Below, in pieces: positions 1 to 16,738 of a stretch of 35,177 nucleotides of DNA. Under the pieces are notes generated by a model that worked only from the letters and a program-made list of their open reading frames with translations, was not told where the DNA came from and ran no database searches. A program made the translations under genes and the position numbers. The stretch is from a virus (Duplodnaviria > Heunggongvirae > Uroviricota > Caudoviricetes). Within the stretch, counting starts at the first letter, position 1, and each line of letters begins with the position of its first letter. The stretch lies in IMG/VR virus record IMGVR_UViG_2576861193_000006, one strand, 5' to 3'.

Positions 1-462
1 ATGCTGGGTGATTGTTTCCCTCCTGATTTTAAGGCTAATTTTAGTCGTGAAAGAGGTATATCACCCGGTGATGTATTGTATCTTCATTGTGATTTTACGA
101 CCCCACCTAAAGTAAAATATATGGTGGTTGTTTGCTGTGAACCTCTTTTAGTTCTTCTAATAAATTCAGATATAAATGAATTTATTAAGAGAAACAATGA
201 TCTTATGGCTTGTCAGGTCGAAATTAATAGAGAGGACCATGATTTTCTTAAATGGGACTCATTTGTTAATTGCATTGAGGCTCATGCTGCTTTCGATCTT
301 GAAATTATTAAAGAGAAAATAGCCATCCAATATGGCGACGTGCTAAAAGGTCGCATTACAGATCATTGTATGAGACAAGTTCGATGTGCAGTTGAGATAT
401 CTAAAATCATGGTTAAACGGCATAAAAAACTGATACTCGCTGCTCTTCAACATTATGAATAA
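1..462 (+). CDS. hypothetical protein, 153 aa, AT-rich cargo gene; no recognisable domain
   Basis: ORF with ATG at 1 and TAA at 460-462, followed by a hairpin terminator; base composition visibly more AT-rich than the phage core; convergent with xis. May be 5'-truncated by the window edge. Confidence 0.4.
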   Translation: MLGDCFPPDFKANFSRERGISPGDVLYLHCDFTTPPKVKYMVVVCCEPLLVLLINSDINEFIKRNNDLMACQVEINREDHDFLKWDSFVNCIEAHAAFDLEIIKEKIAIQYGDVLKGRITDHCMRQVRCAVEISKIMVKRHKKLILAALQHYE

Positions 463-495: not shown

Positions 496-768
496 TTAAA
501 TGAGCCTTTGTTTATGGGTTCTGACCCTTTCCCACTCAGCACGCCCTTCTTCTCGCCTTTTGTCTATGTATTCCGCAAGATCCTGAATATTGATGCAACG
601 TTTTGCTTTTTGTGATGTGCCGATGCGATATGTTGGAACGGGCAACTTACAAGCGTTTGCTTTTGCTTCTGCCGTGGCTGGACTCATGCCAAAGTACTTT
701 TGGCTAACTGCTGAGAGTTCAATGTTAGGGGTATTGAATTCAGCCATCAGTAAAAACAAGGTGTTCAT
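496..768 (-). CDS. xis: excisionase-like DNA-binding protein (putative Xis)
   Basis: Small basic protein MNTLFLLMAEF... resembling lambdoid prophage excisionase-like proteins; ATG at 768 has GGAG 6 nt upstream; the longer ORF reaching 795 lacks an RBS. Confidence 0.6.
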   Translation of the reverse strand: MNTLFLLMAEFNTPNIELSAVSQKYFGMSPATAEAKANACKLPVPTYRIGTSQKAKRCINIQDLAEYIDKRREEGRAEWERVRTHKQRLI

Positions 769-804
769 AATTTTCTCCATCAAAACCGGCTGCACCCGGG
801 AAAA

Positions 805-1380
805 TCATAATTCTGTGCTGGTGGCAGGAATTAATTTCTGCCAGATAGCGGAAACATATTTTGCCTGATGACGGGCATCAGCCAGGGCGTTGTGCCGTTC
901 GCCATCGAAAGGCATGTCCATTTTGGGGTCGAATCCGATGGAACGCCCAAGCGTAACGATCGTGCGTACATCGTGGTCATTCCAGTACGCCCACGGGCAG
1001 ATTTGTCCTGCTCGCTCATAAGCTCCACGTAAAATTACGTTGTCGAAGGTGGCCCCGTTACCCCAGACTTTTAAATATTTCGTATTGTCTGCGTGCCGGT
1101 TAATGAAATGGTTTAGTTCTGAGAGTGCATCGCTGATCGACAAAGTATCATCAATACAGATTGCAGCTCGCGCTTCAGGGCTTTGTTTCAACCACCACAG
1201 GATGGTATCGCCGTCAGGTGTAGCTCCTTGCTTCATAGCACTGTCTAGGCTGACAACCGCATAGAATTCTTGTCCGATGTCTCCGGTTTCTGGAGTGAAG
1301 AACACCGCGCCAATGGAAACGATCGGTGCATCCTTATTTTTCCCCATCGTCTCAAGGTCGATCATTAAGTTGTTCATCAC
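805..1380 (-). CDS. DEDD-family 3'-5' exonuclease (DnaQ-like)
   Basis: Motifs IDLETMG (Exo I) and HNALADA (Exo III); start ATG overlaps upstream stop (ATGA coupling). Confidence 0.75.
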   Translation of the reverse strand: MMNNLMIDLETMGKNKDAPIVSIGAVFFTPETGDIGQEFYAVVSLDSAMKQGATPDGDTILWWLKQSPEARAAICIDDTLSISDALSELNHFINRHADNTKYLKVWGNGATFDNVILRGAYERAGQICPWAYWNDHDVRTIVTLGRSIGFDPKMDMPFDGERHNALADARHQAKYVSAIWQKLIPATSTEL

Positions 1381-1925
1381 TTCACCTCCTGCGGCGGTTC
1401 CGGTAGCGGCATCCAGTGAGTTGCTTGCTCAATACCATTACCCGGCTTAATCGTTGCTTCTCCTCGCCGGAATGTGCTTCCTGTATAGCGTGCGGAGCAT
1501 ATTAGCGGTTCAACCAGATAGCTATCGAAATTCACCGAAATAAGCACGTTCTGGTTCTTTTCAGGCATCCGCTCACTACAGCTTATCCAACCATCCGGAG
1601 TTACCGGAGAGTTGCCATTTATATCGAAGTTTGGCTCTGCGTCCTGAACTAGGAGGATGTAACCATTCTTGGCAGTATCAAGTTCTAACGCCTCGGTGAC
1701 GGTACCGAAATAGCGATTACCTAAATCCGCATCACAAGTGCTTACATCAATGGAAACCTCCATGCCTTCGATTAATTCTGGCAAGTTGTAAGTTTGGCTT
1801 ACATGTTCTGCTCCCAGTGATGCCAGTGCAATCCGTGCCACTTCCATTTGTTCGCCACGGGTAAGCCCGTTATCAAGCGGATTTTTAATGAATAATTCGA
1901 TACGTTCTTTGGTAATAGTGGTCAT
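1377..1925 (-). CDS. DUF551-like phage protein
   Basis: 182-aa ORF with C-terminal HWMPLPEPP motif typical of DUF551 proteins of lambdoid prophages; translationally coupled to neighbours. Confidence 0.65.
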   Translation of the reverse strand: MTTITKERIELFIKNPLDNGLTRGEQMEVARIALASLGAEHVSQTYNLPELIEGMEVSIDVSTCDADLGNRYFGTVTEALELDTAKNGYILLVQDAEPNFDINGNSPVTPDGWISCSERMPEKNQNVLISVNFDSYLVEPLICSARYTGSTFRRGEATIKPGNGIEQATHWMPLPEPPQEVK

Positions 1926-1927
1926 AG

Positions 1928-2119
1928 CTATTTCACCTTAATCTCAACATTTCGCAGCTTTAGCTCTACTGGCAGGTCTGACTTTCCTGTTAATGCTAAT
2001 GCGAGATTTTCTGGGGTAATGAGAGCGGTTATTGTTTTCCCCATCGCCAGACGAATAATCATTCGTATCTCGCTATCGTCACATGCTCCCGGTCGAACAA
2101 TTGATATTTGTCCGTTCAT
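1928..2119 (-). CDS. small hypothetical protein (63 aa)
   Basis: ATG at 2119 lies 1 nt after the TGA (2121-2123) of the upstream gene; the longer ORF to 2200 would overlap that gene by 80 nt. Confidence 0.45.
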   Translation of the reverse strand: MNGQISIVRPGACDDSEIRMIIRLAMGKTITALITPENLALALTGKSDLPVELKLRNVEIKVK

Positions 2120-2120
2120 C

Positions 2121-2624
2121 TCACTCTCCTTTGATACGAATGCCCGCGGCGTGTGGCACATTAACTTCCACGATGCGCACTGTTGGTTTGTACATCTCAA
2201 TCGCTGTCAGCCAGTCAGCTCCTGTCATGCGCTTTTCCGCATCGCCATTAGTCCACTGAACCGGTACACCAATAGCCTTCATCGCGATTTCTATTTCCCC
2301 GGCAATGGCGCTTTTCCCGCAACCAGTAAAACCAGAGACAACGACAAGAACTTCACCTTTGGCTGGTTTTATTTCCCGTGCTTCCAGTTCTGCAATGCGT
2401 TTGCTTTGGGCTTCTCGTTCATCCAACAGCGCCTGCACTACTTCAGGGTTGAAAGCAGCAGCAAGACGGCTGGCGGTATAGTTAATACCCTCGTTGCGAG
2501 CCTCAGCACGTACTTCATCGAATTTACGCACCAGATACTCAGCATTTGTTTCATTCACTTTCAGATCTCGTGGTACACATTTCCCGCGAAGAAACCCTTC
2601 CATTTCGAAAACATTCATGCGCAT
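2121..2624 (-). CDS. P-loop (Walker A) containing early protein
   Basis: GFTGCGKS Walker-A-like motif in the C-terminal half; overlaps upstream HD gene by 10 nt. Confidence 0.65.
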   Translation of the reverse strand: MRMNVFEMEGFLRGKCVPRDLKVNETNAEYLVRKFDEVRAEARNEGINYTASRLAAAFNPEVVQALLDEREAQSKRIAELEAREIKPAKGEVLVVVSGFTGCGKSAIAGEIEIAMKAIGVPVQWTNGDAEKRMTGADWLTAIEMYKPTVRIVEVNVPHAAGIRIKGE

Positions 2625-3151
2625 TTGCGTAACTCCGATAAATCGTTAAAACGTTCCATAAACATCCCGTAGGCATGACCCGGTGCCAGTGGAATCACGT
2701 TGAACATCTCTGTTGCCGGGATGCCTTCCAGTACAGGCCAGAAAGAGCCATCATCAAGCCCGAGATCGCGGCGTTCGGTTGCCAGCATGATGAGATCGGC
2801 ATATTTCACGGGTGTACTCATAACTGGGGGTAACCCGTATTTCTCACGGATTACGGCGTCTATTTTTTCTTCCATCCGTTTATAGTCAGGAAGAAGGCGT
2901 TTCAGTGGTGCGGGAATGTCCTGGCAATACGCTTCTGTTGCATCATGCATTAACGCTTCAAAAGCAAATTCCTGCGGCACCAGCTGGCTGCAAAGAACCG
3001 CATGTTGGGCGACGCTGTAGAAGTGCGAAAGATGACCGGCAAAGCGACAGATATTTGAAAGGGAAACCGCGATATCGTTAATATCGATGTCGTCTTTATT
3101 TATCTTGTCATAATAAAAATGCTTCCCGGAAAAAGTTTTAATAAATGACAT
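2615..3151 (-). CDS. HD-domain phosphohydrolase (YfdR/YfbR-like 5'-deoxynucleotidase)
   Basis: H...HD metal-binding motifs (HFYSVAQHAV, LMHDATEA); start taken at MSFIKTF. Confidence 0.75.
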   Translation of the reverse strand: MSFIKTFSGKHFYYDKINKDDIDINDIAVSLSNICRFAGHLSHFYSVAQHAVLCSQLVPQEFAFEALMHDATEAYCQDIPAPLKRLLPDYKRMEEKIDAVIREKYGLPPVMSTPVKYADLIMLATERRDLGLDDGSFWPVLEGIPATEMFNVIPLAPGHAYGMFMERFNDLSELRKCA

Positions 3152-3278
3152 TTTGTTCTCCACGTATATGCACTGCACCGCGCTGAATTCTGGTAAAAGG
3201 AAGCCCTCACCATCCGGTGATTATTGAGTTAATTACGTTTCCATAAATGCCCCCGCAGGGGCATTTGCAGTAATGAAA

Positions 3279-4103
3279 TCAGGCGGTGAAAGTACCAATA
3301 AAGGTTTCTACTTTGCTGTCTTTGAATTTCTCAACAAGCAGATCACGAAATTCGTTAGCCATTTCTTCCTGCACCGCTTCCAGCTGAATAATGCGCAGAA
3401 CCAGTACAGGACGATCGCCAGTGATAATGCTGAGGCGTAATTTAAACGGACGTTCTTTCAGACCTTCAAACGGAACGCATTTAAATTCAAATGCCACTGG
3501 CATAATGTCTTTGGTCTTCGCTTCGACAGACTCCATCAGGGAGCGTTTGCCGCTGAAGTCATTATCTTCAAAATCAGCGGTCTGGTTTGCTTCAATCGTG
3601 ATTTTACGGACTGCCGCAGCCGCTTTTGTTGCTTGAATGGCGTCACCATTAGCATCAAAGCCCACAAGGTAGTCGGCCCAGTCTTCGATCCATTCTGCCA
3701 GTGACTTCTGGGAGTTACGCTCGCCGTTAACAGACAACAGAGCAGAGAACGGTGCTGTCTTTTTCAGTTTGAGAGTGGCAGTGTTATCTGCGTGACCTGG
3801 CTCATCAATAGTACCCAGGTTAAGCACACTGACGGCACGCATATTATCGGCATCGATAAAGCAGCGGGTGCCTTCATCTGCAAGATCTTTAGAATAACGG
3901 GTAAAATCATCGATGCTGGCAGTGGAAAGTGCACCACGGAAACGGAAGCGATTTAAATTAAATTTTTCCAGATCATGAATGCGGAAATTCTCAGGCAATG
4001 CCACAGCATCGGCACCAATCTTACTGATAATTTCATTAACACCCTGAGCAGAAATAAGGGCATGGATTTGATTAATTGCGGTTGCGTCTAAGTTCTGAGA
4101 CAT
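3279..4103 (-). CDS. DUF2303 / YfdQ-like protein
   Basis: 274-aa ORF starting [12 protein letters not shown], resembling YfdQ of E. coli CPS-53-type prophages. Confidence 0.7.
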
Positions 4104-4168
4104 AATAAGTCCTCACTATATAAAGATATTCAGTGATGAGATAAATAATCAGTTTATTACGAACGATA

Positions 4169-4531
4169 TTAACGACCTGCTGCGCGGAGTTTTCCGTCAG
4201 GTTCACCGGCAAGAGTCAGTAATTGTCCCTGGTCTTCCTGCAGAATAGTCAGGCGGCCACCGCGATTGACATACATCGGCGTTTCGGTGGTGTCTTCTTC
4301 GGAAATTTTCCCGCGGTTAGTCGGGCGAACATATGAGAGTTTGTGTTTGATTTTCACACGGTTCTCATCAAATGGTTCGATTTCCAGGTTGAGCGAGACC
4401 TTACCTTTGGTTTTCGTGTTCATCACACCGGAAGCGACTTCACTGAGAACTGCGCCGATTTTGGTTTCAAATACGCCGCCGTCCAGCTCCCCGATAAATG
4501 CCTGCACATCAGTACTGCGTTCGCTAGCCAT
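4169..4531 (-). CDS. YfdP-like hypothetical protein (120 aa)
   Basis: ATG at 4531 with GAGGAG 7 nt upstream; the longer ORF to 4762 has no RBS and an implausible N-terminus. Confidence 0.65.
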   Translation of the reverse strand: MASERSTDVQAFIGELDGGVFETKIGAVLSEVASGVMNTKTKGKVSLNLEIEPFDENRVKIKHKLSYVRPTNRGKISEEDTTETPMYVNRGGRLTILQEDQGQLLTLAGEPDGKLRAAGR

Positions 4532-4578
4532 TTTGCTGCTCCTCATCATATCGACCCTGCAAGGTCGGTTAGTTTCTC

Positions 4579-4680
4579 CACAAAACAGAGAAGAACACCT
4601 GCGGTGGCAGCCGCCCGGATGGATTGGGTTATGAGCCCGTCGTCCGGTGATGCTCTTCTCTGTTTTGTAAAAAGAGCGGT
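4579..4680 (-). promoter_or_regulatory. boxA-like motif (CGCUCUUUUUA on the leftward transcript) followed by a compound hairpin; candidate nutL/put-like antitermination element
   Basis: Reverse complement of 4668-4678 reads CGCTCTTTTTA; 14-bp perfect inverted repeat 4581-4594/4654-4667 encloses a nested CCGGA/TCCGG hairpin; located about 50 nt upstream of the first early-left gene. Confidence 0.3.
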
Positions 4681-5139
4681 ACCAGCCGGAAGCAAGTGTA
4701 CAAACTGGTACCGCCAAAGCAGTGGCTGTTGTGGTGGGGTTGTCACTCAGGTGTATGGTCAACCTGACAATCCGGTGTCCTCAACGGGGAAAGAGTAACC
4801 CCGCCATACTTACCGCCGCGCCATTTCGCGGATTACCACAACGCTGAGAGCACTTAGCCAGTTACGGCACCACACTTTGTCGCGGTTCCATAAATGCCCT
4901 CATCGTTGCACCCTGGTCTCTTCCCAGGCGTCAAACCGAATCGCCACGCTGGTTAGGCGTCTTATCAGCATCCTCATTGACTTGCACATTCCGGCTACCT
5001 GGTTTGTTTGCCCGAGCAAGGAGTGGATTGTCCCCTTTAACGTCCCCAGACCGCTAACGACGCATGTGCCATACGCCGTGTTACAACCAAATTTTGTTAG
5101 TACCTTGTTTGTAGGTCTGGAAAGAAAGATAAAATGAAG

Positions 5140-5178
5140 TTGCGCATTATGCAAGTGTTTTTATTGCGAGATATGCAA
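5140..5178 (-). promoter_or_regulatory. candidate OL operators and pL promoter
   Basis: Two TTGC-N7-GCAA 15-mers (5140-5154, 5164-5178); on the minus strand TTGCAT (-35), 17-nt spacer, CATAAT (-10). Confidence 0.4.
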
Positions 5179-5188
5179 TTTAGTGGGT

Positions 5189-5213
5189 AATGAAAAGCCA
5201 CCTTCTGGTGGCT
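5189..5213 (-). terminator. rho-independent terminator downstream of cI
   Basis: AGCCACC/GGTGGCT stem followed on the minus strand by TTTTCATT, 20 nt past the cI stop. Confidence 0.55.
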
Positions 5214-5234
5214 AATTGATGTTGAGGTAGGGGG

Positions 5235-5927
5235 TTAATTGTGTCGCTTAAGGGTTTGTGACTGACTGATTAAGACCTTTCCAAAGACCATAAACCGGTG
5301 TTCGTTTTCGCTGGTAATTCCCCATTCGCGGTAAATCTGATTATCAGAAATTACCAGCAGTTTATCAGGTATCATTTGCAGTCGTTTGACGTAAATTTTA
5401 TCATCAAAACCAAATACATATATACCATCCCCATCAAACTGATTGATACTGATATCAACGAAGATGAGATCTCCTGGCTCAATGGTTGGACACATACTGT
5501 CCCCACGAACGTTGATAACTTTAATGTGATTTGCTGGTCGTCCACCAAACATCGATACAGCATTATCAGTTCTGTATTCAATGGCATGAATCACATCAAT
5601 GACATCACCGCCCTGGATAAGGCCATTTCCCGCACTGGCACTGACATCCAGCATTTCAATACGGAATACATCCTTCACCTGCGCAACATCCTCACTAATA
5701 CTGTTTTTACATACAGTATTACTTTTGAGGTCTGAGGTAAAGAGATCAGCAATATCAACACCTAAGCTCCTGGCAATATTACTCAGGGCTTGTTCAGTGA
5801 ATTGTTTCTGCTTACCTGTTTCGAGGCGCGAGATATTCGCCGCATCCACTCCTATTGCTTCAGCGAGATCGGCGATTTTCATGTTCTTCGCCTGGCGAAG
5901 TTGTCTGACTCGATTTCCTATGTTCAT
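5235..5927 (-). CDS. cI: CI-type prophage repressor (HTH_XRE N-terminal domain + S24 LexA-like peptidase domain)
   Basis: N-terminal HTH (QLRQAKNMKIADLAEAIGV), C-terminal S24 features (GDSM ... K); divergent from cro-like gene across an operator region. Confidence 0.9.
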   Translation of the reverse strand: MNIGNRVRQLRQAKNMKIADLAEAIGVDAANISRLETGKQKQFTEQALSNIARSLGVDIADLFTSDLKSNTVCKNSISEDVAQVKDVFRIEMLDVSASAGNGLIQGGDVIDVIHAIEYRTDNAVSMFGGRPANHIKVINVRGDSMCPTIEPGDLIFVDISINQFDGDGIYVFGFDDKIYVKRLQMIPDKLLVISDNQIYREWGITSENEHRFMVFGKVLISQSQTLKRHN

Positions 5928-5939
5928 GCGTTTATTACA

Positions 5940-6015
5940 TTTCTTTATTGCGCGTTAAGCAAATCAACTTGCGCAAAATATTTGCGTGAAATAATATGCT
6001 CATCACGCAATATGT
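5940..6015. promoter_or_regulatory. OR operator region with candidate PR and PRM
   Basis: TTGC-N7-GCAA 15-mer (5948-5962) and related TTGCGC half-sites; PR candidate TTGCGC (-35, 5969-5974) / TAATAT (-10, 5992-5997); inverted repeat TTGCGTGA (5981-5988) / TCACGCAA (6004-6011). Confidence 0.45.
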
Positions 6016-6024: not shown

Positions 6025-6285
6025 ATGCAATCACCATTACGGAATGTGCGTAAGGCGCACGGATTTACTTTGCAGCATGTTGCTGCGGGCGTTCAGGTCA
6101 ATCCAGCGACGCTGAGTCGTATTGAAAGACTGGAACAAATTCCATCTATCGATCTTGCAGAACGTCTGGCCAATTTTTTTAAGGGTGAAATCAGCGAAAT
6201 GCAGATTCTTTATCCGGCACGTTTTCAATCTAGCCAAAACCAGAATGGGTTTAAACCACAGGAACAGGAGGTAAGCCGTGGGTAA
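6025..6285 (+). CDS. cro: Cro-like HTH regulator
   Basis: HTH_XRE motif (FTLQHVAAGVQVNPATLSRIE); GGAGG 4 nt upstream of ATG; divergent from cI. Confidence 0.8.
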   Translation: MQSPLRNVRKAHGFTLQHVAAGVQVNPATLSRIERLEQIPSIDLAERLANFFKGEISEMQILYPARFQSSQNQNGFKPQEQEVSRG

Positions 6286-6829
6286 GCATCATTGGAAAGT
6301 GGAAAAACAACCTGAGTGGTACGTGAAAGCTGTCAGAAAAACTATCGCGGCATTGCCTGGGGGTTACGCTGAAGCTGCTGACTGGCTGGATGTAACAGAG
6401 AACGCTTTATTCAACCGCCTTCGTGCAGATGGCGATCAGATTTTCCCGCTGGGATGGGCAATGGTTTTACAGCGCGCGGCTGGCACTCACTACATTGCGG
6501 ATGCTGTCGCACAGTCTGCTGGTGGGGTGTTCGTATCGCTTCCTGAAATTGAGGAAGTAGAGAACGCCGATATAAACCAGCGCCTGCTGGAAGTCATCGA
6601 ACAGATCGGGAATTACTCAAAGCAGATTCGTTCGGCAATCGAAGATGGGGTCGTGGAGCCACACGAGCAGACAGCAATTAATGATGAGTTGTATCTGTCA
6701 ATTTCGAAGCTCCAGGAGCATGCAGCACTGGTCTACAAAATCTTCTGCGCTCCAGAAAAGAGTGACGCCCGCGAGTGTGCAGCTCCGGGCGTCGTGGCGT
6801 TTTGTGTCTGTGGAGAAACTAACGCATGA
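6278..6829 (+). CDS. CII-like / YdaT-like regulatory protein (putative)
   Basis: GTG start with AGGAGGT 5 nt upstream; position immediately after cro; weak remembered similarity to phage CII (CP76)-family proteins. Confidence 0.55.
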   Translation: MGKHHWKVEKQPEWYVKAVRKTIAALPGGYAEAADWLDVTENALFNRLRADGDQIFPLGWAMVLQRAAGTHYIADAVAQSAGGVFVSLPEIEEVENADINQRLLEVIEQIGNYSKQIRSAIEDGVVEPHEQTAINDELYLSISKLQEHAALVYKIFCAPEKSDARECAAPGVVAFCVCGETNA

Positions 6830-7236
6830 ACAGTTTAACGGCAAATAACCGTTTGTCGCAACAGCTGGTGGTCAGTGTCGCTGAACACCTGTTGTTACGG
6901 TATGAATGCAGATTACCAAATCACCTGGCTGTAAGTAACCACAGAGAACTTTACCTGACTGTGGGGGGCGAGTTGTGCAGGAACTTAACCGCTGGTTTCG
7001 TGACGGAAGAGGGCTTTATGTCCATGTTATTCGTTGGGAGCCAGAAACACAGCGCGTTATCTATCTTCGCAAAGACTACCCGCATGAGTGCTTTAGTCCT
7101 TTGTGGAAATTCAGGCATGATTTTGTTGAGTGTGAAGGACCACCAGCACATTGATTCTGCCATTCCGGGACGTTACACTGTTCAGGCACCTTATAAAGCG
7201 GGTGCCGGGCGTGGAAACCCGGAATTCACCAAAGCG

Positions 7237-7281
7237 CACAACCGCGCTCTTGCGGTTTTTTTGTGTAATGAGCAGCATTAC
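7237..7281 (+). promoter_or_regulatory. boxA-like CGCTCTT plus hairpins (terminator-like stem with T7 run; GTAATG/CATTAC hairpin)
   Basis: ACCGC/GCGGT stem (7241-7256) followed by TTTTTTT (7256-7262); CGCTCTT at 7245-7251; hairpin 7265-7281; lies inside the long ORF 6826..7977, arguing against that ORF's N-terminal part. Confidence 0.3.
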
Positions 7282-7431
7282 GCCCAAATTATGGTGGGGC
7301 GTGCAGGGCCAACTTCGGTTGGGCCGGGTTCTTTGGTGACCGGTATTTCCACCCCTGTACGTCTCACCACCAATAAGGTCGTGGAAAGCCTTGGTGGTGA
7401 GTTATTAAAAATCACCAAAGAGGCTGCCATC

Positions 7432-7977
7432 ATGGCTACGATCCCAACCCTCACTCAACCTGAAATTGCCATCGTTGATGGTCAGGCTGTTACTTCATCC
7501 CTGGCTGTTGCCAACTTCTTCTCCAAACGTCATGACGATGTACTGAAAAAGATCCGCACGCTTGAATGCTCTGCATCATTCACTGCCCGCAATTTTTCGG
7601 TGAGTGATTACACCGATTGCACAGGCCGCAAACTACCTTGCTATCAAATAACCCGCGACGGCTTTGCGTTTCTTGCTATGGGGTTCACGGGTAAACGTGC
7701 TGCCCAGTTCAAAGAGGCATACATCAATGCCTTTAACCAGATGGAGAAACAGCTTTCAAATCCCTCTGTACTGAGCGACGTTGCACATAACGCCAGCGTT
7801 CTCTATTCCTACATTTCATCAATTCATCAGGTCTGGCTGCAGCAGCTTTATCCTATGTTGGCAAAAGCCGAATCTCCGCTGGCTGTTAGCTTGTATGACT
7901 ATATTAATGATGCTTCGGCACTGGCCTGCCTCATAAATTTGTCGCTGAACCCTTCAGAGGTAAGGGGGCGCAAATGA
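7432..7977 (+). CDS. rha: Rha-family phage regulatory protein
   Basis: Rha domain begins at MATIPTLTQPEIAIVDGQAV...; GAGG upstream of ATG at 7432; the upstream in-frame extension to 6826 is judged not part of the protein. Confidence 0.7.
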   Translation: MATIPTLTQPEIAIVDGQAVTSSLAVANFFSKRHDDVLKKIRTLECSASFTARNFSVSDYTDCTGRKLPCYQITRDGFAFLAMGFTGKRAAQFKEAYINAFNQMEKQLSNPSVLSDVAHNASVLYSYISSIHQVWLQQLYPMLAKAESPLAVSLYDYINDASALACLINLSLNPSEVRGRK

Positions 7978-8198
7978 TCCGGAATATTTTCAAACGGTTT
8001 ACCAATCAGACTTTCCGTTGTCCTCGTCCTGGTCAGTGGTACACCACGCCTGCAGGGCATGTTCTACGTGTCAGCCTGGTTGACCGTGAATGTCAGAAGG
8101 TGATTTGTGAACCGCTGGGCCGTAATTACCGCATCAGTATGCCGCTTATAGCCTTTTGCTCCGGAAAAAACATGAAGCATCTCGGAGGTGCAGCATGA
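7974..8198 (+). CDS. small hypothetical protein (74 aa)
   Basis: ATG overlaps rha stop (ATGA). Confidence 0.45.
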   Translation: MIRNIFKRFTNQTFRCPRPGQWYTTPAGHVLRVSLVDRECQKVICEPLGRNYRISMPLIAFCSGKNMKHLGGAA

Positions 8199-9013
8199 GT
8201 ATGGAGCTGATGGTTAAAGCGATGAAAATTCGAGTGGGTAATCCATTGCGAAAACTGGTTCTGATCAAGCTGGCTGATAACGCCAGCGATCAGGGTGAGT
8301 GCTGGCCCAGCTACCAGCATATTGCTGACCAGTGCGAGATTAGCAAACGTTCTGTGATGAATCATATTGCGGCTCTTTGTGATTCCGGACTGGTAAAAAA
8401 AGTCACCCGGAAAGGTGAAAAAGGTAACTCAAGTAATATCTATCTCCTTCATCTTGATGGTGCAGGAGATTCACTAGGGGGTAGTGCAAATAATTCACTA
8501 TCTGGTGCAGCAAATTCACCAGGTAGTGCAGGAGTTGCACCAGGGGGTGGTGCAGGAGATTCACCCAGAACCAGTCACTCTTTTGAACCAGTCAAAGAAC
8601 CAGTCAATGAACCAATAGCTGTTGGTGCATCTGCTGATGAGTCTGTGCGAGTTCGTTCAAACCGACCGGAATACTCTCCGGAGTTTGAGCAGGCATGGCT
8701 GGCATACCCCAAACGTGCTGGTGGCAATTCAAAATCTGCAGCCTTCAAAGCCTGGAAAGCCCGTTTGAATGAGGGGGTAAACCCCGAAACCATGCTGGAA
8801 GGTGTGAAACGCTATGCGGGCTGGGTATCTGCGATGGGTAACAGCGGCACACAATTTGTGAAACAGGCTGTCACGTTCTTTGGTCCGGATCGTCATTTCG
8901 AAGAATCCTGGGAAGTTCCTGCGGTATCTGCAGCCAGACGTGAGGATCCGTACTTCAAAGCCAGTTACGACAACGTGGACTACAGCCAGATCCCGGCAGG
9001 ATTCAGGGGGTGA
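8195..9013 (+). CDS. replication initiator protein (winged-helix N-terminal domain, O-like)
   Basis: GGAGGTG 4 nt upstream of ATG 8195; N-terminal wHTH (LIKLADNASDQGECWPSYQHIADQCEISKRSVMNHI); Gly/Ser/Ala-rich linker encoded by iteron-like repeats. Confidence 0.75.
   Translation: MSMELMVKAMKIRVGNPLRKLVLIKLADNASDQGECWPSYQHIADQCEISKRSVMNHIAALCDSGLVKKVTRKGEKGNSSNIYLLHLDGAGDSLGGSANNSLSGAANSPGSAGVAPGGGAGDSPRTSHSFEPVKEPVNEPIAVGASADESVRVRSNRPEYSPEFEQAWLAYPKRAGGNSKSAAFKAWKARLNEGVNPETMLEGVKRYAGWVSAMGNSGTQFVKQAVTFFGPDRHFEESWEVPAVSAARREDPYFKASYDNVDYSQIPAGFRG
8459..8607. repeat. candidate origin of replication: five iterons (consensus GTGCA-N5-TTCAC) at 21-24 bp spacing plus three GAACCAGTCA repeats
   Basis: Iterons ending at 8474, 8498, 8519, 8540, 8564; GAACCAGTCA at 8569, 8585, 8598; embedded in the linker of the replication initiator gene as oriLambda is in gene O. 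Confidence 0.55.
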
Positions 9014-9015
9014 TC

Positions 9016-9504
9016 ATGAGTCTTTTGAATGAAGTTCAGAAATTCATTGAAGCCCATCCGGGGTGTACTTCCGGAGACATTGCGGATGCTTTTGCAGGTT
9101 ACTCACGGCAGCGCGTTCTGCAGTCAGCAAGCAAGTTACGTCAGAGTGGGCGTGTGGCTCACCGTTGTGAAGGAGATACACGCAGACATTTCCCGCGCCT
9201 GACTGAGAGAGCGCAGGAGCCGGAACCACAACCAGTTCGTGAAACCAGACCTGTGCGCAATTTCTATGTCGGCACTAACGATCCCCGGGTGATTTTGTGC
9301 CTGACCCGCCAGGCTGAAGAACTGGAGTCAAGGGGCTTATACCGTCGTGCTGCAACCGTGTGGATGGCGGCATTCCGTGAAAGCCACTCCCAGCCAGAAC
9401 GAAACAATTTTCTGACGCGTCGTGAGCGGTGCTTACGGAAAAGCAGCAAGCGCGCTGCATCGGGTGAAGAGTGGTATCTGTCAGGGAATTACGTGGGGGC
9501 TTAA
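9016..9504 (+). CDS. hypothetical DNA-binding protein (possible PerC-like regulator)
   Basis: ATG at 9016 with G-rich SD; N-terminal wHTH-like segment; C-terminal LESRGLYRRAATVWMAAF motif. Confidence 0.55.
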   Translation: MSLLNEVQKFIEAHPGCTSGDIADAFAGYSRQRVLQSASKLRQSGRVAHRCEGDTRRHFPRLTERAQEPEPQPVRETRPVRNFYVGTNDPRVILCLTRQAEELESRGLYRRAATVWMAAFRESHSQPERNNFLTRRERCLRKSSKRAASGEEWYLSGNYVGA

Positions 9505-10157
9505 TGAGTAATAAATATTGCCAGGCGCTGGTGGAACTGCGGAACAAACCAGCCCATGAACTGAAGGAAGTGGGCGATCAGTGGCGCACGCCGGACAACA
9601 TTTTCTGGGGAATTAACACCCTGTTTGGCCCGTTTGTTCTGGATCTGTTCACTGACGGTGATAACGCCAAATGTGCTGCGTATTACACGGCGGAAGACAA
9701 CGCGCTGGCGCATGACTGGTCAGAACGTCTTGCGGAGCTTAAAGGGGCTGCCTTTGGTAATCCCCCATACAGCCGCGCCAGTCAGCATGAGGGGCAATAC
9801 ATCACCGGCATGCGTTACATCATGAAACATGCCAGTGCCATGCGTGATAAGGGTGGGCGCTATGTTTTCCTGATCAAAGCTGCCACCAGCGAAGTGTGGT
9901 GGCCGGAAGATGCAGACCATATTGCTTTTATTCGCGGGCGTATTGGTTTTGAACTGCCTGCCTGGTTTATCCCGAAGGATGAGAAGCAGGTGCCGACAGG
10001 CGCTTTCTTCGCTGGTGCTATTGCTGTTTTCGACAAGACCTGGAAGGGACCGGCAATCAGCTACATCGGGCGCGATGAACTTGAGGCATGTGGTGAGGCG
10101 TTTTTGGCGCAGGTTCGCCAGCAGGCAGAAAAACTTGTCAGGGAGATGGCGGCATGA
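9504..10157 (+). CDS. dam: phage Dam-type DNA N6-adenine methyltransferase
   Basis: Catalytic FGNPPYS motif; ATG overlaps upstream stop (TAATG). Confidence 0.85.
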   Translation: MSNKYCQALVELRNKPAHELKEVGDQWRTPDNIFWGINTLFGPFVLDLFTDGDNAKCAAYYTAEDNALAHDWSERLAELKGAAFGNPPYSRASQHEGQYITGMRYIMKHASAMRDKGGRYVFLIKAATSEVWWPEDADHIAFIRGRIGFELPAWFIPKDEKQVPTGAFFAGAIAVFDKTWKGPAISYIGRDELEACGEAFLAQVRQQAEKLVREMAA

Positions 10158-10480
10158 CGACGTTAACTCAATGCCAGCAGCAGGTGCTGGATATGCTGAT
10201 TTCTTACCAGCAAGAGCGTGGCTTTCCGCCAACCAATCAGGAGGTGGCAACCATGCTGGGATACCGTTCAGTGAATGCAGCGGTGGAGCATCTTCGCGCA
10301 CTGGAGAAAAAAGGTGTCATCACGATAAAGCGTGGCGTGGCCCGGGGGATAACGCTTCATACCGCAGTGAAGGACGACGACAGCGAAGCGGTCGGTATCA
10401 TCCGCGCACTGCTTGCCGGTGAGGAGAACGCCAGGCTGCGTGCAGCCCACTGGTTACATGAGAGGGGCCTGAAAGTATGA
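10154..10480 (+). CDS. LexA N-terminal DNA-binding-domain protein (no peptidase domain)
   Basis: LTQCQQQVLDMLISYQQERGFPPTNQEVATMLGYRSVNAAVEHLRALEKKGVI resembles the LexA winged-helix domain; ORF ends after 108 aa. Confidence 0.7.
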   Translation: MTTLTQCQQQVLDMLISYQQERGFPPTNQEVATMLGYRSVNAAVEHLRALEKKGVITIKRGVARGITLHTAVKDDDSEAVGIIRALLAGEENARLRAAHWLHERGLKV

Positions 10481-10866
10481 AGTTGATCCTGCCTTTCCCG
10501 CCCAGTGTGAACACGTACTGGCGACACCCCAACAAAGGGGCATTTGCTGGTAAGAGCCTGATAAGCGAGGCGGGGCGAAAATTTCAGAGCGCGGCGTGCG
10601 CAGCAATAGTTGAGCAGTTACGTCGTCTGCCGAAACCAACGTCGGCACCTGCTTCAGTGGAGATCGTGTTGTTTCCTCCGGATAACCGGATCCGCGATCT
10701 GGACAACTATAACAAGGCGCTGTTTGACGCCCTGACCCACGCGGGTGTGTGGGAAGACGACAGACAGGTGAAAAGAATGCTGGTGGAGTGGGGACCGGTT
10801 ATCCCGAAAGGGAAGGTCGAGATCACTATCAGTAAGTATGAGAAACCGGCGGGTGCAGCCGCCTGA
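10477..10866 (+). CDS. rusA: RusA Holliday junction resolvase
   Basis: Canonical RusA N-terminus MKLILPFPPSVNTYWR and acidic catalytic residues. Confidence 0.9.
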   Translation: MKLILPFPPSVNTYWRHPNKGAFAGKSLISEAGRKFQSAACAAIVEQLRRLPKPTSAPASVEIVLFPPDNRIRDLDNYNKALFDALTHAGVWEDDRQVKRMLVEWGPVIPKGKVEITISKYEKPAGAAA

Positions 10867-10885
10867 TTAAGAGGAGAAACGAAGT

Positions 10886-11695
10886 ATGAATAATCTGATG
10901 GTCATTGATGGTATTGAAGTTCGTCGTGATGCTTATGGGCGTTACAGCCTGAACGATCTGCATCGCGCAGCAGTAGCATCTGGTGCAAATGCCAGAACCA
11001 AGGAGCCAGGAAAGTTTCTTTCCAGCCAACAAACTGTTGAGCTTGTTCATGAATTGACCAACACCCAGAATTTGGGTGTTGACCCGGTGAGTGTGATTCA
11101 TGGGGGAAATGAACGGGGAACGTATGTCTGCAAGGAACTGGTGTATGCCTATGCAATGTGGATCAGCCCGTCATTCCATCTGAAGGTGATCCGTACTTTC
11201 GACATGGTAACCAGCGCACCGGAAAAATTATCCGGACAGGCTGCTGACAAGATGCAGGCTGGTGTGATTCTGCTGGACTTTATGCGCCGGGAATTAAACC
11301 TGTCTAACTCTTCAGTGCTTGGTGCCTGTCAGAAACTCCAGGAGGCTGTTGGCTTACCGAATCTGGCACCGCGCTATGCCATTGATGCTCCTGCTGACGC
11401 GCCTGATGGCTCAAGTCGTCCTACGCTGTCGCTGAGTGCACTGCTGAAACAGTATGGTATCCGCCTTACGGCTAATCAGGCATATCACCAGATGGCGAAG
11501 CTGGGGATCGTTGAACAACGCGAACGATACAGCCGTACCGCGATTAACAACATCAAAAAATTCTGGTCGCTGACAGCGAAAGGTTGCATGTTCGGCAAGA
11601 ACATCACCAGTCCCGCAAATCCGCGCGAGACGCAGCCGCATTTCTTCGAATCCCGATTCCCTGAGCTGTTAAAGCTGCTCGATACCGTTCATTGA
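10886..11695 (+). CDS. KilA-N domain protein
   Basis: N-terminal KilA-N-like region (YSLNDLHRAAV ... KELVYAYAMWISPSFHLKVIRTFD); GAGGAG upstream of ATG. Confidence 0.75.
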   Translation: MNNLMVIDGIEVRRDAYGRYSLNDLHRAAVASGANARTKEPGKFLSSQQTVELVHELTNTQNLGVDPVSVIHGGNERGTYVCKELVYAYAMWISPSFHLKVIRTFDMVTSAPEKLSGQAADKMQAGVILLDFMRRELNLSNSSVLGACQKLQEAVGLPNLAPRYAIDAPADAPDGSSRPTLSLSALLKQYGIRLTANQAYHQMAKLGIVEQRERYSRTAINNIKKFWSLTAKGCMFGKNITSPANPRETQPHFFESRFPELLKLLDTVH

Positions 11696-11696
11696 G

Positions 11697-12692
11697 GTGA
11701 CCGTGAGAGCACTACTGACCCCTGAAATTGCCCCGCGTATGGGGATCGTATTGTTCAGGCCAGGTTCAGAGCTGATGCCCCTGTTTATGCAGGGGCGTGT
11801 CCTGCTGGAGCCTGAGCCGGAACGTTATTCATCTTTCGCCAGTGGTGTCGTTCCGGCGGCATCACAACCGCTGGCGGATGATCCTGCCGTTCGGGCCGTG
11901 TTCCGCAATGAGGAAGTGATCCGTCGTGCTGGTGGCGTGGAATGTCTTGAAAGCTGGTTACTTCGTGAAAAAGGCTGCCAGTGGCCTCATTCCGACTGGC
12001 ACAGCGAGAACATGACAACAATGCGACACGCGCCGGGCGCAATCCGTCTGTGCTGGCACTGCGATAACCAGCTGCGCGATCAGTTCACGGAACGGCTGGA
12101 ATCAATGGCAACGGATAACTGTGCCCGCTGGGTGTTGTCTGTTGTGCGTCGGGATCTCGGTTTTGATGATAGTCACGTTGTGACAATGCCGGAACTGTGC
12201 TGGTGGCTGATTCGTAATGACCTGGCGGATGCCTTACCGGAAAGTGCAGCCCGTAAGGCACTGAGATTACCGAAGCCTGTTGTGCCGTCTGTCACCCGGG
12301 AAAGTGACCTTGTGCCTTCGGTTCCTGCCACCAGCATCATCCAGGATAAGGCGAAAAAGGTGCTGGCGCTGAAAGTGGATCCGGAGTCGCCGGAGTCTTT
12401 TATGTTACGCCCAAAACGTCGCCGCTGGGTTAATGAAAAGTACACACGCTGGGTTAAGACACAGCCGTGTGCATGTTGTGGAAAGCCTGCTGATGATCCC
12501 CACCACCTGATAGGCCACGGTCAGGGGGGAATGGGTACAAAAGCGCATGACCTCTTTGTGTTGCCTTTGTGCAGAAAGCATCACGACGAGCTGCATGCGG
12601 ATACCGTGGCATTTGAAGAGAAGTATGGCTCCCAGCTGGAGCTGATATTTCGTTTTATCGATCGTGCGCTGGCAATTGGCGTGCTGGCCTGA
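11697..12692 (+). CDS. DUF968 domain protein (Cys/His-rich C-terminal domain, YdfU-like)
   Basis: C-terminal [44 protein letters not shown]; GTG start 1 nt after upstream stop. Confidence 0.7.
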
Positions 12693-12709
12693 TTTTGTGG
12701 AGAACGTTG

Positions 12710-13075
12710 ATGCGTGATATTCAAATGGTTCTTGAACGTTGGGGGGCATGGGTGGCAAATAATCACGAGGATGTCACCTGGTCGTCTATTGCTGCAGGAT
12801 TTAAAGGACTAATCCCTTCAAAAGTAAAATCCCGCCCGCAATGTTGTGACGATGATGCGATGATCATTTGTGGGTGCATGGCTCGCCTGAAAAAGAACAA
12901 CAGCGATTTGCACGATTTATTAGTGGATTATTATGTAGGTGGTATGACGTTTATGGCGCTTGCCCGTAAACATGGGCGTTCTGATTGCTGGGTTGGGCGT
13001 TTATTGCAAAAGGCTGAAGGTGTAGTTGATGGCATGTTAATGATGTTAGAAATTGAGCTAGAGATGGATCGTTAG
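12710..13075 (+). CDS. Q: late-gene antiterminator Q (phage 82/21 / QuuD type)
   Basis: [36 protein letters not shown]; GGAG 7 nt upstream of ATG 12710; located just before the late promoter region. Confidence 0.85.
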
Positions 13076-13116
13076 AAGACCTCTTATTGAGGGGGTAATT
13101 GAATCAGTTTAATGTG

Positions 13117-13150
13117 TGGGGAGTCGATTTATTCTCCCCATTTTATTTAA
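13117..13150 (+). terminator. hairpin terminator after Q
   Basis: GGGGAG/CTCCCC stem (13118-13123/13134-13139) followed by ATTTTATTT. Confidence 0.45.
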
Positions 13151-13159
13151 TTAATTTAC

Positions 13160-13606
13160 TTAAGGTTTTAATTCATCAAGACGTTGTTGGATAGTGTTTT
13201 TGCTTGCGTTGTCTGTTATAGCCATTTGTTGTACTTGCCCCATTGCCATTTGAGTTTCCATCCACATATCGGCCCACACTTTTGTATCGTTATTAACTTG
13301 AGCGATAGTAAATCTGACTTTTGATACCGGGGTTGTTGAATAGGCATTGCCGATTAACATTTGTCCAAAAACAGCAGACCCGCCTTCCAGTTCTTTACCA
13401 CATATAACACTGCTGTTATCAGCGTTGTAAATTATCAACCCTCTACTATTGCAGTAATTCACAAGGGCATCTTTGACTTTATCTTTTGTCGTATTTTGAT
13501 AAACCCCCTCAGGTTTTCCTGATTGAGTTTTTTTTATCAATGGTACGGAAGAAGTACAACCTGAAATGATAGTTGCGCTAAGTAATAGTACAGTCATTTT
13601 ATTCAT
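13160..13606 (-). CDS. lipoprotein (moron), 148 aa, unknown function
   Basis: Signal peptide with lipobox LLSATIISG-C; antisense to the phage late operon; AT-rich island 13080-13850. Confidence 0.8.
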   Translation of the reverse strand: MNKMTVLLLSATIISGCTSSVPLIKKTQSGKPEGVYQNTTKDKVKDALVNYCNSRGLIIYNADNSSVICGKELEGGSAVFGQMLIGNAYSTTPVSKVRFTIAQVNNDTKVWADMWMETQMAMGQVQQMAITDNASKNTIQQRLDELKP

Positions 13607-13671
13607 GTTTCTTATCCATTGTTAAGGGCATACCTACACAATTATTTTTATTGGAGATGAATAATCAACCG

Positions 13672-13699
13672 TTTACAATCGTAAAAAATCAAATATGCT
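13672..13699 (+). promoter_or_regulatory. candidate late promoter PR'
   Basis: TTTACA (13672-13677), 16-nt spacer, TATGCT (13694-13699); about 30 nt upstream of a strong terminator, as for lambda PR'/tR'. Confidence 0.4.
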
Positions 13700-13728
13700 G
13701 TTAAGAGTGGTTACTTCGCCACACAACT

Positions 13729-13756
13729 TAAACCCGCCACTGAGCGGGTTTTTTGT
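13729..13756 (+). terminator. rho-independent terminator (tR'-like)
   Basis: AACCCGC-CACTGA-GCGGGTT followed by TTTTTG. Confidence 0.6.
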
Positions 13757-13852
13757 ACCTGTAAACTTGGTGCAGTACAGTAAACACGCTGGTGGTCGTG
13801 AATACTGACTTTTTATCTTGCTGGCTTTTTAGACAAGAGTTATTGGTATGTC

Positions 13853-14080
13853 ATGTTAACCAGAAGGGAAAAAGACATGCTAAAACAGCAAGATATGACA
13901 GAAACCGCCGCCGCAGTCCTTCATTTCTTACCTGCTGACAAGTGGGTAACGCCACGCATGATGACGAGAACTACCGGAGTAAGCGAAGCCCAGTGCCAGT
14001 TAATACTGACTCAGTTAGTTCTGGCGGGTCTGGCGAAGGATAACGGCGGGTACGGGAATAAATTCAGACGCTGCCAGTAA
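13853..14080 (+). CDS. small hypothetical protein (75 aa), possible winged-helix
   Basis: ORF immediately upstream of the methyltransferase; LILTQLVLAGLAKDNG segment; weak RBS. Confidence 0.45.
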   Translation: MLTRREKDMLKQQDMTETAAAVLHFLPADKWVTPRMMTRTTGVSEAQCQLILTQLVLAGLAKDNGGYGNKFRRCQ

Positions 14081-14230
14081 TGGCGGTTTCCTGCTGTGAA
14101 AATGGGCGGCTGGTGGGTGTTGGTAGCACCTGCCAGCCATTCGCTCATGCTTACTGGTCACAAGCGAACCACGGCCCACTGCTTTAGCGCAAAAGCAGAG
14201 TGAGCCTACCAGAGTTACGCTTACTGATCC

Positions 14231-15283
14231 ATGAAAAATACTGTAAAAATAAACAGTGTTGATTTAATCAACGCTGATTGCCTGCATTTTATTCAGTCCC
14301 TGCCTGATAACTCCATTGATCTGATTGTTACCGATCCGCCGTACTTCAAAGTGAAGCCCAACGGCTGGGACAATCAGTGGAAAGGGGACGAAGATTACCT
14401 GAAGTGGCTGGACCACTGTCTGGCCCAGTTCTGGCGGGTACTGAAACCAGCCGGAAGCCTTTACCTGTTCTGTGGGCATCGCCTGGCATCTGATATTGAG
14501 ATCATGATGCGTGAACGTTTCAACGTGCTTAACCATATCATCTGGGCGAAGCCGTCCGGACGTTGGAATGGGTGTAATAAAGAAAGTCTGCGTGCATATT
14601 TTCCTGCCACAGAGCGCGTTCTGTTTGCTGAACATTACCAGGGGCCATATCGCGGCAAAAGTGACGGCTATGCGGCAAAAGAAAGGGAACTCAAACAGCA
14701 CATAATGGCACCGCTGATTTCGTATTTCAGGGATGCTCGTGCCGAACTGGGTATAACGGCAAAACAAATTGCCGAAGCCACAGGTAAGAAAAATATGGTT
14801 TCCCACTGGTTTGGTGCCAGTCAGTGGCAGTTGCCGAATGAGGCTGACTATCGGAAGTTACAGGCACTGTTTTCCCGTATAGCGGCAGAGAAGTTTCAGG
14901 AACAACAACTGGAACAACCACACCACCAGCTGGTGGCATCTTATGATTCACTGAATCGCAAATATTCTGAATTGCTGGATGAGTTTAAATCTCTCCGGCG
15001 CTATTTCTCCGTATCAGTCTCCGTGCCTTATACCGATGTCTGGATGCATAAACCCGTTCAGTTCTACCCGGGGAAACATCCGTGTGAGAAACCGGCGGAT
15101 ATGCTCAGGCAAATAATCAATGCCAGTAGTCGACCTGGTGATCTGGTTGCTGATTTTTTTATGGGATCCGGTTCCACAATAAAAGCAGCAATGGCGCTGG
15201 GGCGTCGGGCCTTAGGTGTTGAGCTTGAGTCAGAGCGGTTTAATCAGACAGTGAAAGAGATAAACGAGCTGGTGGGGAAATAA
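14231..15283 (+). CDS. orphan DNA methyltransferase (N6-adenine/N4-cytosine, beta class)
   Basis: Catalytic DPPY (LIVTDPPYF) near the N-terminus and AdoMet motif FFMGSGST near the C-terminus; no adjacent restriction endonuclease. Confidence 0.85.
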
Positions 15284-15287
15284 TCTG

Positions 15288-15316
15288 GTGGCCACGTCAG
15301 GTGGCCTTTTTATTTC
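15288..15316 (+). terminator. rho-independent terminator between methyltransferase and holin
   Basis: GGCCAC-GTCAG-GTGGCC followed by TTTTTATTT. Confidence 0.55.
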
Positions 15317-15350
15317 CATTACACAGCACCCGCATCTGCGAGGTGGGGTT

Positions 15351-16727: not shown

Positions 16728-16738
16728 GCCATTACAAA

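Follow-up and report, generated by a model that had tools for sequence, protein, structure and literature searches.

What does the early-left operon of a lambdoid prophage do when it holds two nucleotide-acting enzymes and no Red recombination genes? The question is raised by positions 805-4531 of a 35,177-nt stretch of caudoviricete DNA (IMG/VR record IMGVR_UViG_2576861193_000006), the whole of which is referred to here as the window and which appears to be a complete lambdoid prophage. Seven co-oriented genes lie on the minus strand across these positions, with yfdP as the first and a gene for a DEDDh 3'-5' exonuclease as the last. A preliminary description, made from the sequence, had presented the operon as a substitute for Red functions and its HD phosphohydrolase and exonuclease as possible counter-defence enzymes. 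We found that the module is the common yfdPQR early-left operon of E. coli lambdoid prophages, which is already annotated and already known. As a tentative answer, with a probability somewhat short of an even chance, we propose that it is a cI-repressed early operon of the CPS-53/SfV/mEp460 type for the takeover of host replication and DNA metabolism. The remaining value of the locus lies in the unexplained but widespread YfdP-YfdQ pair and, separately, in an unannotated leader RNA.

When positions 805-4800 were used as a megablast query, matches were obtained in 3943 of 5426 complete E. coli genomes, 166 of them with at least 80% of the stretch (best genome, strain NDM1, 98.8%), and in 472 phage records, among them those of mEp460, 1720a-02, cdtI, SfV and numerous Stx phages. 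The module ranks with the most frequent prophage gene sets of E. coli. The NCBI annotation of the closest genome already names yfdP, yfdQ, yfdR (5'-deoxynucleotidase), a DUF551 protein and a 3'-5' exonuclease. The gene inventory first reported for the window (yfdP, yfdQ, the HD gene yfdR, the DUF551 gene and the DEDDh exonuclease gene) was real, all of its members being found again with Pfam and PHROG. Over 80 E. coli prophage loci from IMG/VR, yfdP-yfdQ-yfdR was constant and the cargo from yfdR to xis was shuffled.

The three constant genes are yfdP (4169-4531, 120 aa; phrog_204, 2.5e-50; Pfam PF27127 'YfdP' in precomputed tables), yfdQ (3279-4103, 274 aa, DUF2303, matched over its full length at Pfam positions 2-269 of 269, 2e-92; Protein Data Bank (PDB) entry 9o7m, 1.2e-44) and yfdR (2615-3151, 178 aa, an HD phosphohydrolase of the 5'-deoxynucleotidase type; phrog_318, 3e-111; PDB 2gz4, 3.3e-14), all on the minus strand. 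Their products are 98%, 99% and 99% identical to the proteins of the K-12 prophage CPS-53 (MG1655 b2359-b2361), which are encoded in the same order on one strand. Purified K-12 YfdR binds domain I of DnaA in a Phe46-dependent manner and has a moderate inhibitory effect on the binding of DiaA and of DnaB to DnaA (Noguchi and Katayama 2016, PMC4776307). Multicopy yfdQRS or yfdQRT inhibited initiation at oriC in vivo and extracts inhibited it in vitro, and the authors proposed a role like that of lambda P in the ancestral phage (PMC4776307). In addition, YfdQ production affects phage release in K-12 according to a preprint. The module had been called essentially uncharacterised; this still applies to YfdP, YfdQ, the DUF551 protein and the exonuclease, but not to YfdR. 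Because the proteins of the window are 98-99% identical to the studied K-12 proteins, for which DnaA binding and a block of oriC were reported, takeover of host replication was our preferred reading.

According to this reading, the operon would be held off by cI at two OL operators. After induction or infection, transcription would run leftward from near position 5120 through a 173-nt structured leader, then through yfdP-yfdQ, a spacer with a hairpin, yfdR, the mosaic cargo (Ea22-like, 63-aa and DUF551 genes), the DexA-like exonuclease gene and finally xis. YfdR would bind DnaA domain I in competition with DiaA and DnaB, and YfdR, YfdQ and a small downstream protein together would block initiation at oriC. 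The HD site of YfdR and the DEDDh exonuclease would act on DNA-derived nucleotides and 3' ends, while YfdP and YfdQ would constitute a fixed two-protein unit of the phage replication and recombination neighbourhood and form large assemblies. We infer the takeover at natural expression in the phage cycle, the biochemistry of YfdP and YfdQ and the substrates of both enzymes.

Several points weigh against the takeover reading. The DnaA effect was seen only on overexpression, and the authors concede that it may be an artefact; deletion of yfdQRST gave no initiation phenotype, and tight binding to YfdR or DnaA was not seen for YfdQ, YfdS or YfdT (PMC4776307). Intact yfdS and yfdT are missing from the window and the published minimal set is not fully present: no YfdT match was found in the window, YfdS occurred there only as a 42-aa N-terminus, and DUF551 sits in a different protein. 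The HD catalytic residues are kept in Pseudomonas homologues of 40% identity, and this conservation suggests that catalysis, rather than DnaA binding, may be the selected function. Moreover, a literature search revealed no paper that cites or explains PDB 9o7m.

The two enzymes were then considered as such. In YfdR the HD metal ligands H50, H69-D70 and D119 are present, as read from the sequence and aligned to Atu1052 (PDB 2gz4), its nearest solved relative. Like E. coli YfbR and Agrobacterium Atu1052, YfdR is an HD phosphohydrolase with H...HD...D ligands, and NCBI names it a 5'-deoxynucleotidase; the PHROG label of its family is deoxyribonucleoside 5'-monophosphate phosphatase. Unlike YfbR, it scores below the curated YfbR family cut-offs (Pfam PF12917, 24.1 vs 25.9; NCBIfam NF003009, 19.9 vs 122), has the additional property of DnaA binding, and is reported second-hand to bind nucleotides with affinities far below YfbR's (PMC4776307, citing Zimmerman 2008, for the K-12 protein). 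The exonuclease gene (805-1377, minus strand, 190 aa from ATG) encodes all DEDDh residues, D7, E9, D112 and H162-x4-D167, in motifs Exo I (DxE), Exo II (D) and Exo III (Hx4D). Its product matches positions 1-177 of 177 of the Pfam Rv2179c-like profile (1.3e-75), and PDB 8kel, confirmed to be T4 DexA, was matched with 4.3e-11 over 138 residues. The enzyme shares the DEDDh 3'-5' exonuclease fold family with T4 DexA and Mycobacterium Rv2179c, though its sequence similarity to T4 DexA is only distant. Judged by these residues, an HD phosphohydrolase and a DEDDh exonuclease with intact catalytic motifs are encoded in the early-left operon, as had been claimed.

Two such enzymes could scavenge nucleotides as T4 and T5 do: the exonuclease would trim DNA or oligonucleotides to deoxyribonucleoside monophosphates (dNMPs), and YfdR would dephosphorylate these simply to salvage precursors or dispose of them, without acting on a regulatory target. 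A functional precedent, by analogy, is T5 Dmp; homology of YfdR to T5 Dmp was rejected as no T5-like match was among the tblastn matches listed. The homology of the exonuclease to T4 DexA, the PHROG phosphatase label, the presence of YfdR-like HD genes in 333 phage records (tblastn), many of them of large lytic phages, and the occurrence of DNMK (dNMP kinase) and dATP/dGTP pyrophosphohydrolase genes in some YfdQ neighbourhoods are in agreement with scavenging. However, a temperate phage that has no endonuclease for host DNA also has no obvious source of dNMPs, and the second-hand affinity values for YfdR are low. Furthermore, the exonuclease and HD genes are separated by mosaic cargo, and both were present in only 15 of 80 species-level YfdQ loci across Gammaproteobacteria, in which neighbours were counted by distance in open reading frames (ORFs). 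Since scavenging would also leave the strict YfdP-YfdQ pairing and the DnaA binding unexplained, we regard it as quite unlikely.

The counter-defence idea holds that the HD and DEDDh enzymes destroy immune nucleotide or nucleic-acid signals, or that they reshape dNTP and dNMP pools against nucleotide-depletion defences. The genes come first in an early operon, a place in which anti-host functions of lambdoid phages are often found; the active sites of both enzymes are intact; the exonuclease weakly resembles a CRISPR-associated DEDDh model (PADLOC, 4e-05); and the cargo further downstream is strongly mosaic, which is also a feature of accessory or anti-defence regions. On the other hand, Pfam, PHROG and PDB searches placed the enzymes in the branches of YfbR-like dNMP phosphatases and of T4 DexA/Rv2179c, that is, outside the known signal-degrading families. 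No match to the Acb1, Apyc1, ring nuclease or Tad/Acb2 families was obtained among the seven proteins with Pfam, PHROGs and PDB, a dedicated anti-defence library not being part of the search. The low nucleotide affinity given for K-12 YfdR speaks against signal destruction as well, literature searches gave no defence-related phenotype, and the K-12 data point to DnaA binding and inhibition of oriC instead. The exonuclease gene, moreover, was found within eight ORFs downstream of YfdQ in only 18 of the 80 species-level loci, the conserved core being YfdP-YfdQ. What the counter-defence proposal comes down to is gene position and generic enzyme classes, and such a role, for which we found no support, is highly unlikely.

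The distribution of the YfdP-YfdQ pair differed clearly from that of the enzymes. A YfdP homologue was encoded immediately upstream of YfdQ in 79 of the 80 species-level loci, and metagenomic look-ups again gave the order YfdP, then YfdQ. By comparison, a YfdR-like HD gene was located at most two ORFs downstream of YfdQ in 53 of the loci, and directly adjacent in 44. Thus, YfdP-YfdQ and not the two enzymes is the invariant operon core. In Pseudomonas phage pAN, one operon encodes homologues of YfdP (38% identity), YfdQ (43%), the DEDD exonuclease (39%, 4e-37) and the HD protein (40%, 2e-31). Because all four components share this operon, the association of YfdP-YfdQ with HD and DEDD enzymes is old, though loose. 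Proteins of about 260 aa encoded downstream of YfdQ in several lineages were considered as a conserved third partner, but this candidate was rejected as they are not mutually homologous. Knowledge of what the pair does would close a gap in the picture of how lambdoid phages without Red deal with the replication of the host and with DNA of their own.

At 50% identity the YfdQ family falls into 1811 clusters, and almost all of these are single-domain proteins of 265-290 aa. The only solved YfdQ relative is PDB 9o7m ('YfdQ Protein'), for which the match improved to 2.2e-100 with a profile. The protein in this entry is 98.8% identical, over 260 compared residues, to a protein of a CP2-like Xanthomonas phage (locus L003, 3068-3892), and the entry holds 36 identical YfdQ chains. 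YfdQ therefore forms or joins a large assembly. As the example chain is designated 'C', chains A and B may differ in identity from the CP2-like proteins tested. The possibility that 9o7m represents a virion map or a complex with YfdP, ORF36 or Erf was rejected, since structural and early proteins of CP2, joined into one query of 4625 aa, matched no further chain. The AlphaFold2 model of YfdQ reached a predicted local distance difference test (pLDDT) value of 75.6; for YfdP (pLDDT 69.5), the prediction shows a long helix, a sheet of three strands and an acidic tail that is disordered. Neither model was found to resemble Rad52/RecT/Erf/gp2.5, Gam or Ku-like proteins in its fold. The idea that YfdQ or YfdP is a cryptic single-strand annealing protein (SSAP), or is gp2.5-like or Gam-like, remained unsupported, as searches of profiles against PDB returned only 9o7m.

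The preliminary statement that exo/bet/gam/kil/cIII-like genes are absent from the early-left operon was confirmed by Pfam and PHROG scans. With these databases no SSAP of the Red-beta/RecT, Erf or Rad52/Sak-like type was found in any ORF at 496-4762, and the sole nuclease of the operon is the DEDDh 3'-5' enzyme, none of the lambda-Exo/YqaJ type being present. Likewise, no Red, RecET, Erf, lambda-Exo, Gam, Abc2, Kil or cIII family was detected in the ORFs from xis to cI, in the scanned ORFs of 6025-20000 or in two ORFs near the right end. The only recombination gene found in the ORFs scanned was RusA at 10477-10866.

In other phages the pair was found together with such genes. In Xanthomonas phage CP2, the operon opens with YfdP (39%, 9e-18) and YfdQ, after which it encodes a 511-aa protein, Erf, a nuclease of the lambda-Exo-like type, an endonuclease and a single-stranded DNA-binding protein (SSB). 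In the Stx2a phage P13374, YfdQ is encoded downstream of kil, a gam-like gene, RecT, exo and SSB; in Vibrio phage 44E38.1, genes for an SSAP, an exonuclease, an RNase T/H-like protein and SSB flank YfdP-YfdQ, and in one metagenomic prophage it lies next to SSB, SSAP and exonuclease genes. As CP2, P13374 and 44E38.1 carry both in one operon, YfdP-YfdQ accompanies Red-like modules and does not replace them, and the prophage studied here simply lacks the SSAP/exonuclease part. A replacement of Red, as first described, is thus an adequate wording for this prophage but not in general.

This gene neighbourhood also raises the possibility that YfdP-YfdQ, together with the 3'-5' exonuclease, has an accessory role in recombination or repair, as a DNA-end-binding, end-protecting or mediator unit which works with host RecA/RecBCD or with any phage SSAP and which is here the remnant of a recombination region. 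Besides the embedding of the pair among SSAP, exonuclease and SSB genes in the four examples above, the 36-chain assembly of YfdQ, in which chains A and B may be something else, and the uniform, single-domain nature of the family over its 1811 clusters are in line with such a role, as is the report that K-12 yfdQ deletion mutants are mildly sensitive to methyl methanesulfonate and H2O2 (PMC4776307). The YfdP and YfdQ models, however, lack similarity to the recombination-related folds named above, and almost no recombinase was found near the 80 prophage loci: a Pfam census of prophage loci yielded 148 other neighbour families, mostly orphans, integrases, helix-turn-helix (HTH) proteins and Ant, and a single RecT. 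Taken together, we consider an accessory role in recombination unlikely, and takeover of host replication was retained as the preferred reading.

Upstream of yfdP, about 590 nt of non-coding leader follow the putative promoter pL; this leader had not been mentioned in the preliminary description. It contains a structured RNA element of 173 nt with four helices (4908-5080, minus strand), which lies about 40 nt downstream of the putative start site and is supported by strong covariation and by a covariance-model match of 152.7 bits. In a four-helix model of 12 diverse copies, 98.1% of the cells were paired vs 29-41% when slid, with six compensatory pairs. In a covariance-model alignment of 74 distinct sequences, which is biased towards the structure because the model itself guided the fit and an exact 19-mer served as the seed, 95.8% were paired vs 27-42% when slid, and compensatory changes occurred in 10 of 26 pairs. 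Long single-stranded blocks of the RNA, e.g. GGUAGCCGGAAUGUGCAAG, are invariant. No match was obtained in Rfam 15 at E<=1 within 4400-5300 (the best at E<=10 reached 15.3 bits vs a gathering threshold of 45), no tRNA was found in the leader, and literature searches with the sequence string gave no match. An N-like ORF in the leader was rejected as well, since only implausible ORFs with TTG or GTG starts were present there.

The leader RNA was conserved in 79 phage records and annotated there in none; under the matches in the 40 records listed, no annotated feature was found in any. Of 5426 complete E. coli genomes, 1831 contained it as well; it occupied 2462 places there, 551 of them on plasmids. 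It was always sense-oriented and always came first in an accessory transcription unit. In mEp460, cdtI, Stx2c phages and mEp390 it is located after cI. In P1, P7 and D6 it is flanked by tRNA-Ile (tciAB in D6) on one side and by ban or other genes on the other. Epsilon15-like phages and a Klebsiella phage carry it in a small unit of reverse orientation that lies between the terminase and portal genes, and tRNA-Arg often follows. Among 80 copies from IMG/VR, 22 preceded yfdP and 17 preceded tRNA-Arg. One IMG/VR contig carried two copies on the same strand (3996-4154 and 4803-4959), about 800 nt apart. A tie of the RNA to yfdPQ was rejected, as it was present at only 5 of 78 species-level YfdQ loci searched. 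The element is a candidate for a new class of cis-regulatory RNA in enterobacterial phages.

The spacer between yfdQ and yfdR (3152-3278) was also folded. An 8-bp GC-rich hairpin (AAUGCCCC-UGCG-GGGGCAUU) was predicted at 3246-3265 on the minus strand; its U tail is poor, it was not called by a terminator scan, and the z-score of the whole spacer, -1.75, is not decisive. The hairpin may be a weak attenuator or terminator, and it may set yfdPQ apart as one unit of the operon from a second unit reached by read-through. Because no N gene is present and a hairpin separates yfdQ from yfdR, we hypothesize that the leader RNA is a cis-acting read-through or processing element. A wider proposal would be a two-layer system, in which the leader RNA governs read-through or processing of accessory units in phages that have no N, and the YfdP-YfdQ assembly acts, with YfdR on DnaA, as a new machine for replication or takeover; we regard this combination as a doubtful possibility.

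The promoter region itself lies just beyond the cI-type repressor gene (5235-5927, minus strand; HTH and S24 peptidase; Pfam Peptidase_S24 5.9e-19 and HTH families; phrog_4), which is located upstream of the operon on the same strand and ends at a terminator-like hairpin at 5196-5213. Directly past this terminator, the putative OL/pL (5126-5178, minus strand) contains two operator palindromes, TTGCGCATTATGCAA at 5140-5154 and TTGCGAGATATGCAA at 5164-5178, which share a consensus with an OR copy at 5948-5962; this 15-nt palindrome forms one repeat family (D1). Candidate pL hexamers, TTGCAT (-35, 5149-5154) and TATCTT (-10, 5126-5131), were read by eye and were not called by the scan. Given these operator copies and promoter-like elements, the label 'pL operon' used in the preliminary description is plausible. 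Its statement that all genes are translationally coupled was too broad, since only four of six junctions are tight: gaps of 65 nt (yfdP to yfdQ) and 127 nt (yfdQ to yfdR) flank yfdQ, and the following spacings are -10, 1, 2 and -1 nt.

The cargo downstream of yfdR, likewise on the minus strand, starts with a mosaic Ead/Ea22-like ORF (2121-2624, 167 aa; Pfam Ead_Ea22, 2.3e-07, its best Pfam match), the first 10 nt of which overlap the end of yfdR. The N-terminal 42 aa resemble YfdS (88% identity over this length), an Ea22-like coiled coil forms the middle, and a small C-terminal domain carries the Walker-A-like motif GFTGCGKS at 98-105, after which only about 60 residues remain. The earlier designation as a P-loop protein is weak: AAA_16 scored 16.9 bits vs a cut-off of 32.6, and no PDB relative was found below E 0.07. 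In the 98.8%-identical genome, the NCBI Prokaryotic Genome Annotation Pipeline (PGAP) marks only a pseudogene fragment at this site. Next are a 63-aa ORF (1928-2119; phrog_1222, 2e-40), hypothetical in the closest genome (strain NDM1) and mEp460, and the gene for a 182-aa DUF551-domain protein (1377-1925; Pfam DUF551 1.9e-22; phrog_60), which precedes the exonuclease gene. The start of a PrtN-family excisionase-like gene (496-795, minus strand; Pfam PyocinActivator 3.9e-23; phrog_1300, excisionase) lies 9 nt past the exonuclease stop, and this gene is the last of the leftward string.

The overall gene order of the window is excisionase-like gene, leftward early operon, cI, cro, cII-like, Rha/Ant-like and O-like replication genes, RusA, Q, lysis genes, terminase and lambda-like tail genes. 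Two Rfam matches on the plus strand, isrK at 7186-7262 (67 bits) and C4 antisense RNA at 7287-7374 (83.6 bits), are located inside a long ORF (6826-7977) of which the C-terminal part is Rha/Ant-like; this looks like an antisense-controlled antirepressor module of the P1/P7 immI type in a lambdoid pR operon. At the left end, a 153-aa ORF (1-462, plus strand) had no Pfam or PHROG match. In the closest genome (locus L001, 2434-3635), the same spot beside a dusA fragment, the likely attachment site, is occupied by a Panacea-domain protein and two hypothetical proteins, and the left end looks like a moron region beyond xis. The nin-like/post-Q region encodes, on the plus strand, a protein of the phosphoadenosine phosphosulfate (PAPS)-reductase-like/DNA-methyltransferase family (9471-10157), a 331-aa HNH endonuclease (phrog_96; 11697-12692) and a 350-aa DNA methyltransferase (14231-15283). 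In the GC-rich right end, a 586-aa ORF (33345-35105, minus strand) opposite to the tail genes had no PHROG match at 1e-8 and may be a spurious antisense ORF or unusual cargo.

Compared with known systems, the operon occupies the same genomic place as lambda Red (exo-bet-gam), P22 erf-abc and RecET, i.e. the pL operon between the immunity region and xis/int, and shares their early timing; unlike these, it has no SSAP, lambda-Exo/YqaJ nuclease, Gam or Abc2. The closest phage records, mEp460, SfV (orf29-31), cdtI, 1720a-02 and Stx2c/Stx2a_WGPS2, have 97% DNA identity over 59-86% of the region. In mEp460/SfV/cdtI-type phages the order xis-exo-DUF551-...-yfdR-yfdQ-yfdP-leader-cI is as in the window, whereas the cargo between yfdR and the exonuclease gene is swapped (extra small ORFs, a methyltransferase, other Ea22 variants). 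The K-12 cryptic prophage CPS-53 (KpLE1; yfdP-yfdQ-yfdR-yfdS-yfdT) has the same yfdPQR genes in the same order. Unlike the window, it has lost cI, pL and the leader RNA, and yfdS and yfdT follow yfdR; in their place the window carries the Ea22-like ORF, the 63-aa ORF, a longer DUF551 protein and the DEDDh exonuclease.

The leader RNA resembles the put RNAs of HK022, which are cis-acting antiterminators past pL and pR, in its position just downstream of pL with no N before the first gene. It differs from them in being larger (about 170 nt, four helices) and in having one copy in the window and none after pR, and its covariance model gave no match in a 9-kb HK022 stretch taken to contain the immunity region. 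Finally, lambda P and SirA of B. subtilis are, like YfdR, DnaA-binding proteins that stop chromosomal initiation, without homology to YfdR, and SirA and YfdR both use the Phe46/Phe49 patch of DnaA domain I. Unlike lambda P and SirA, YfdR is an enzyme of the HD type and takes effect only when YfdQ and either YfdS or YfdT are co-expressed.

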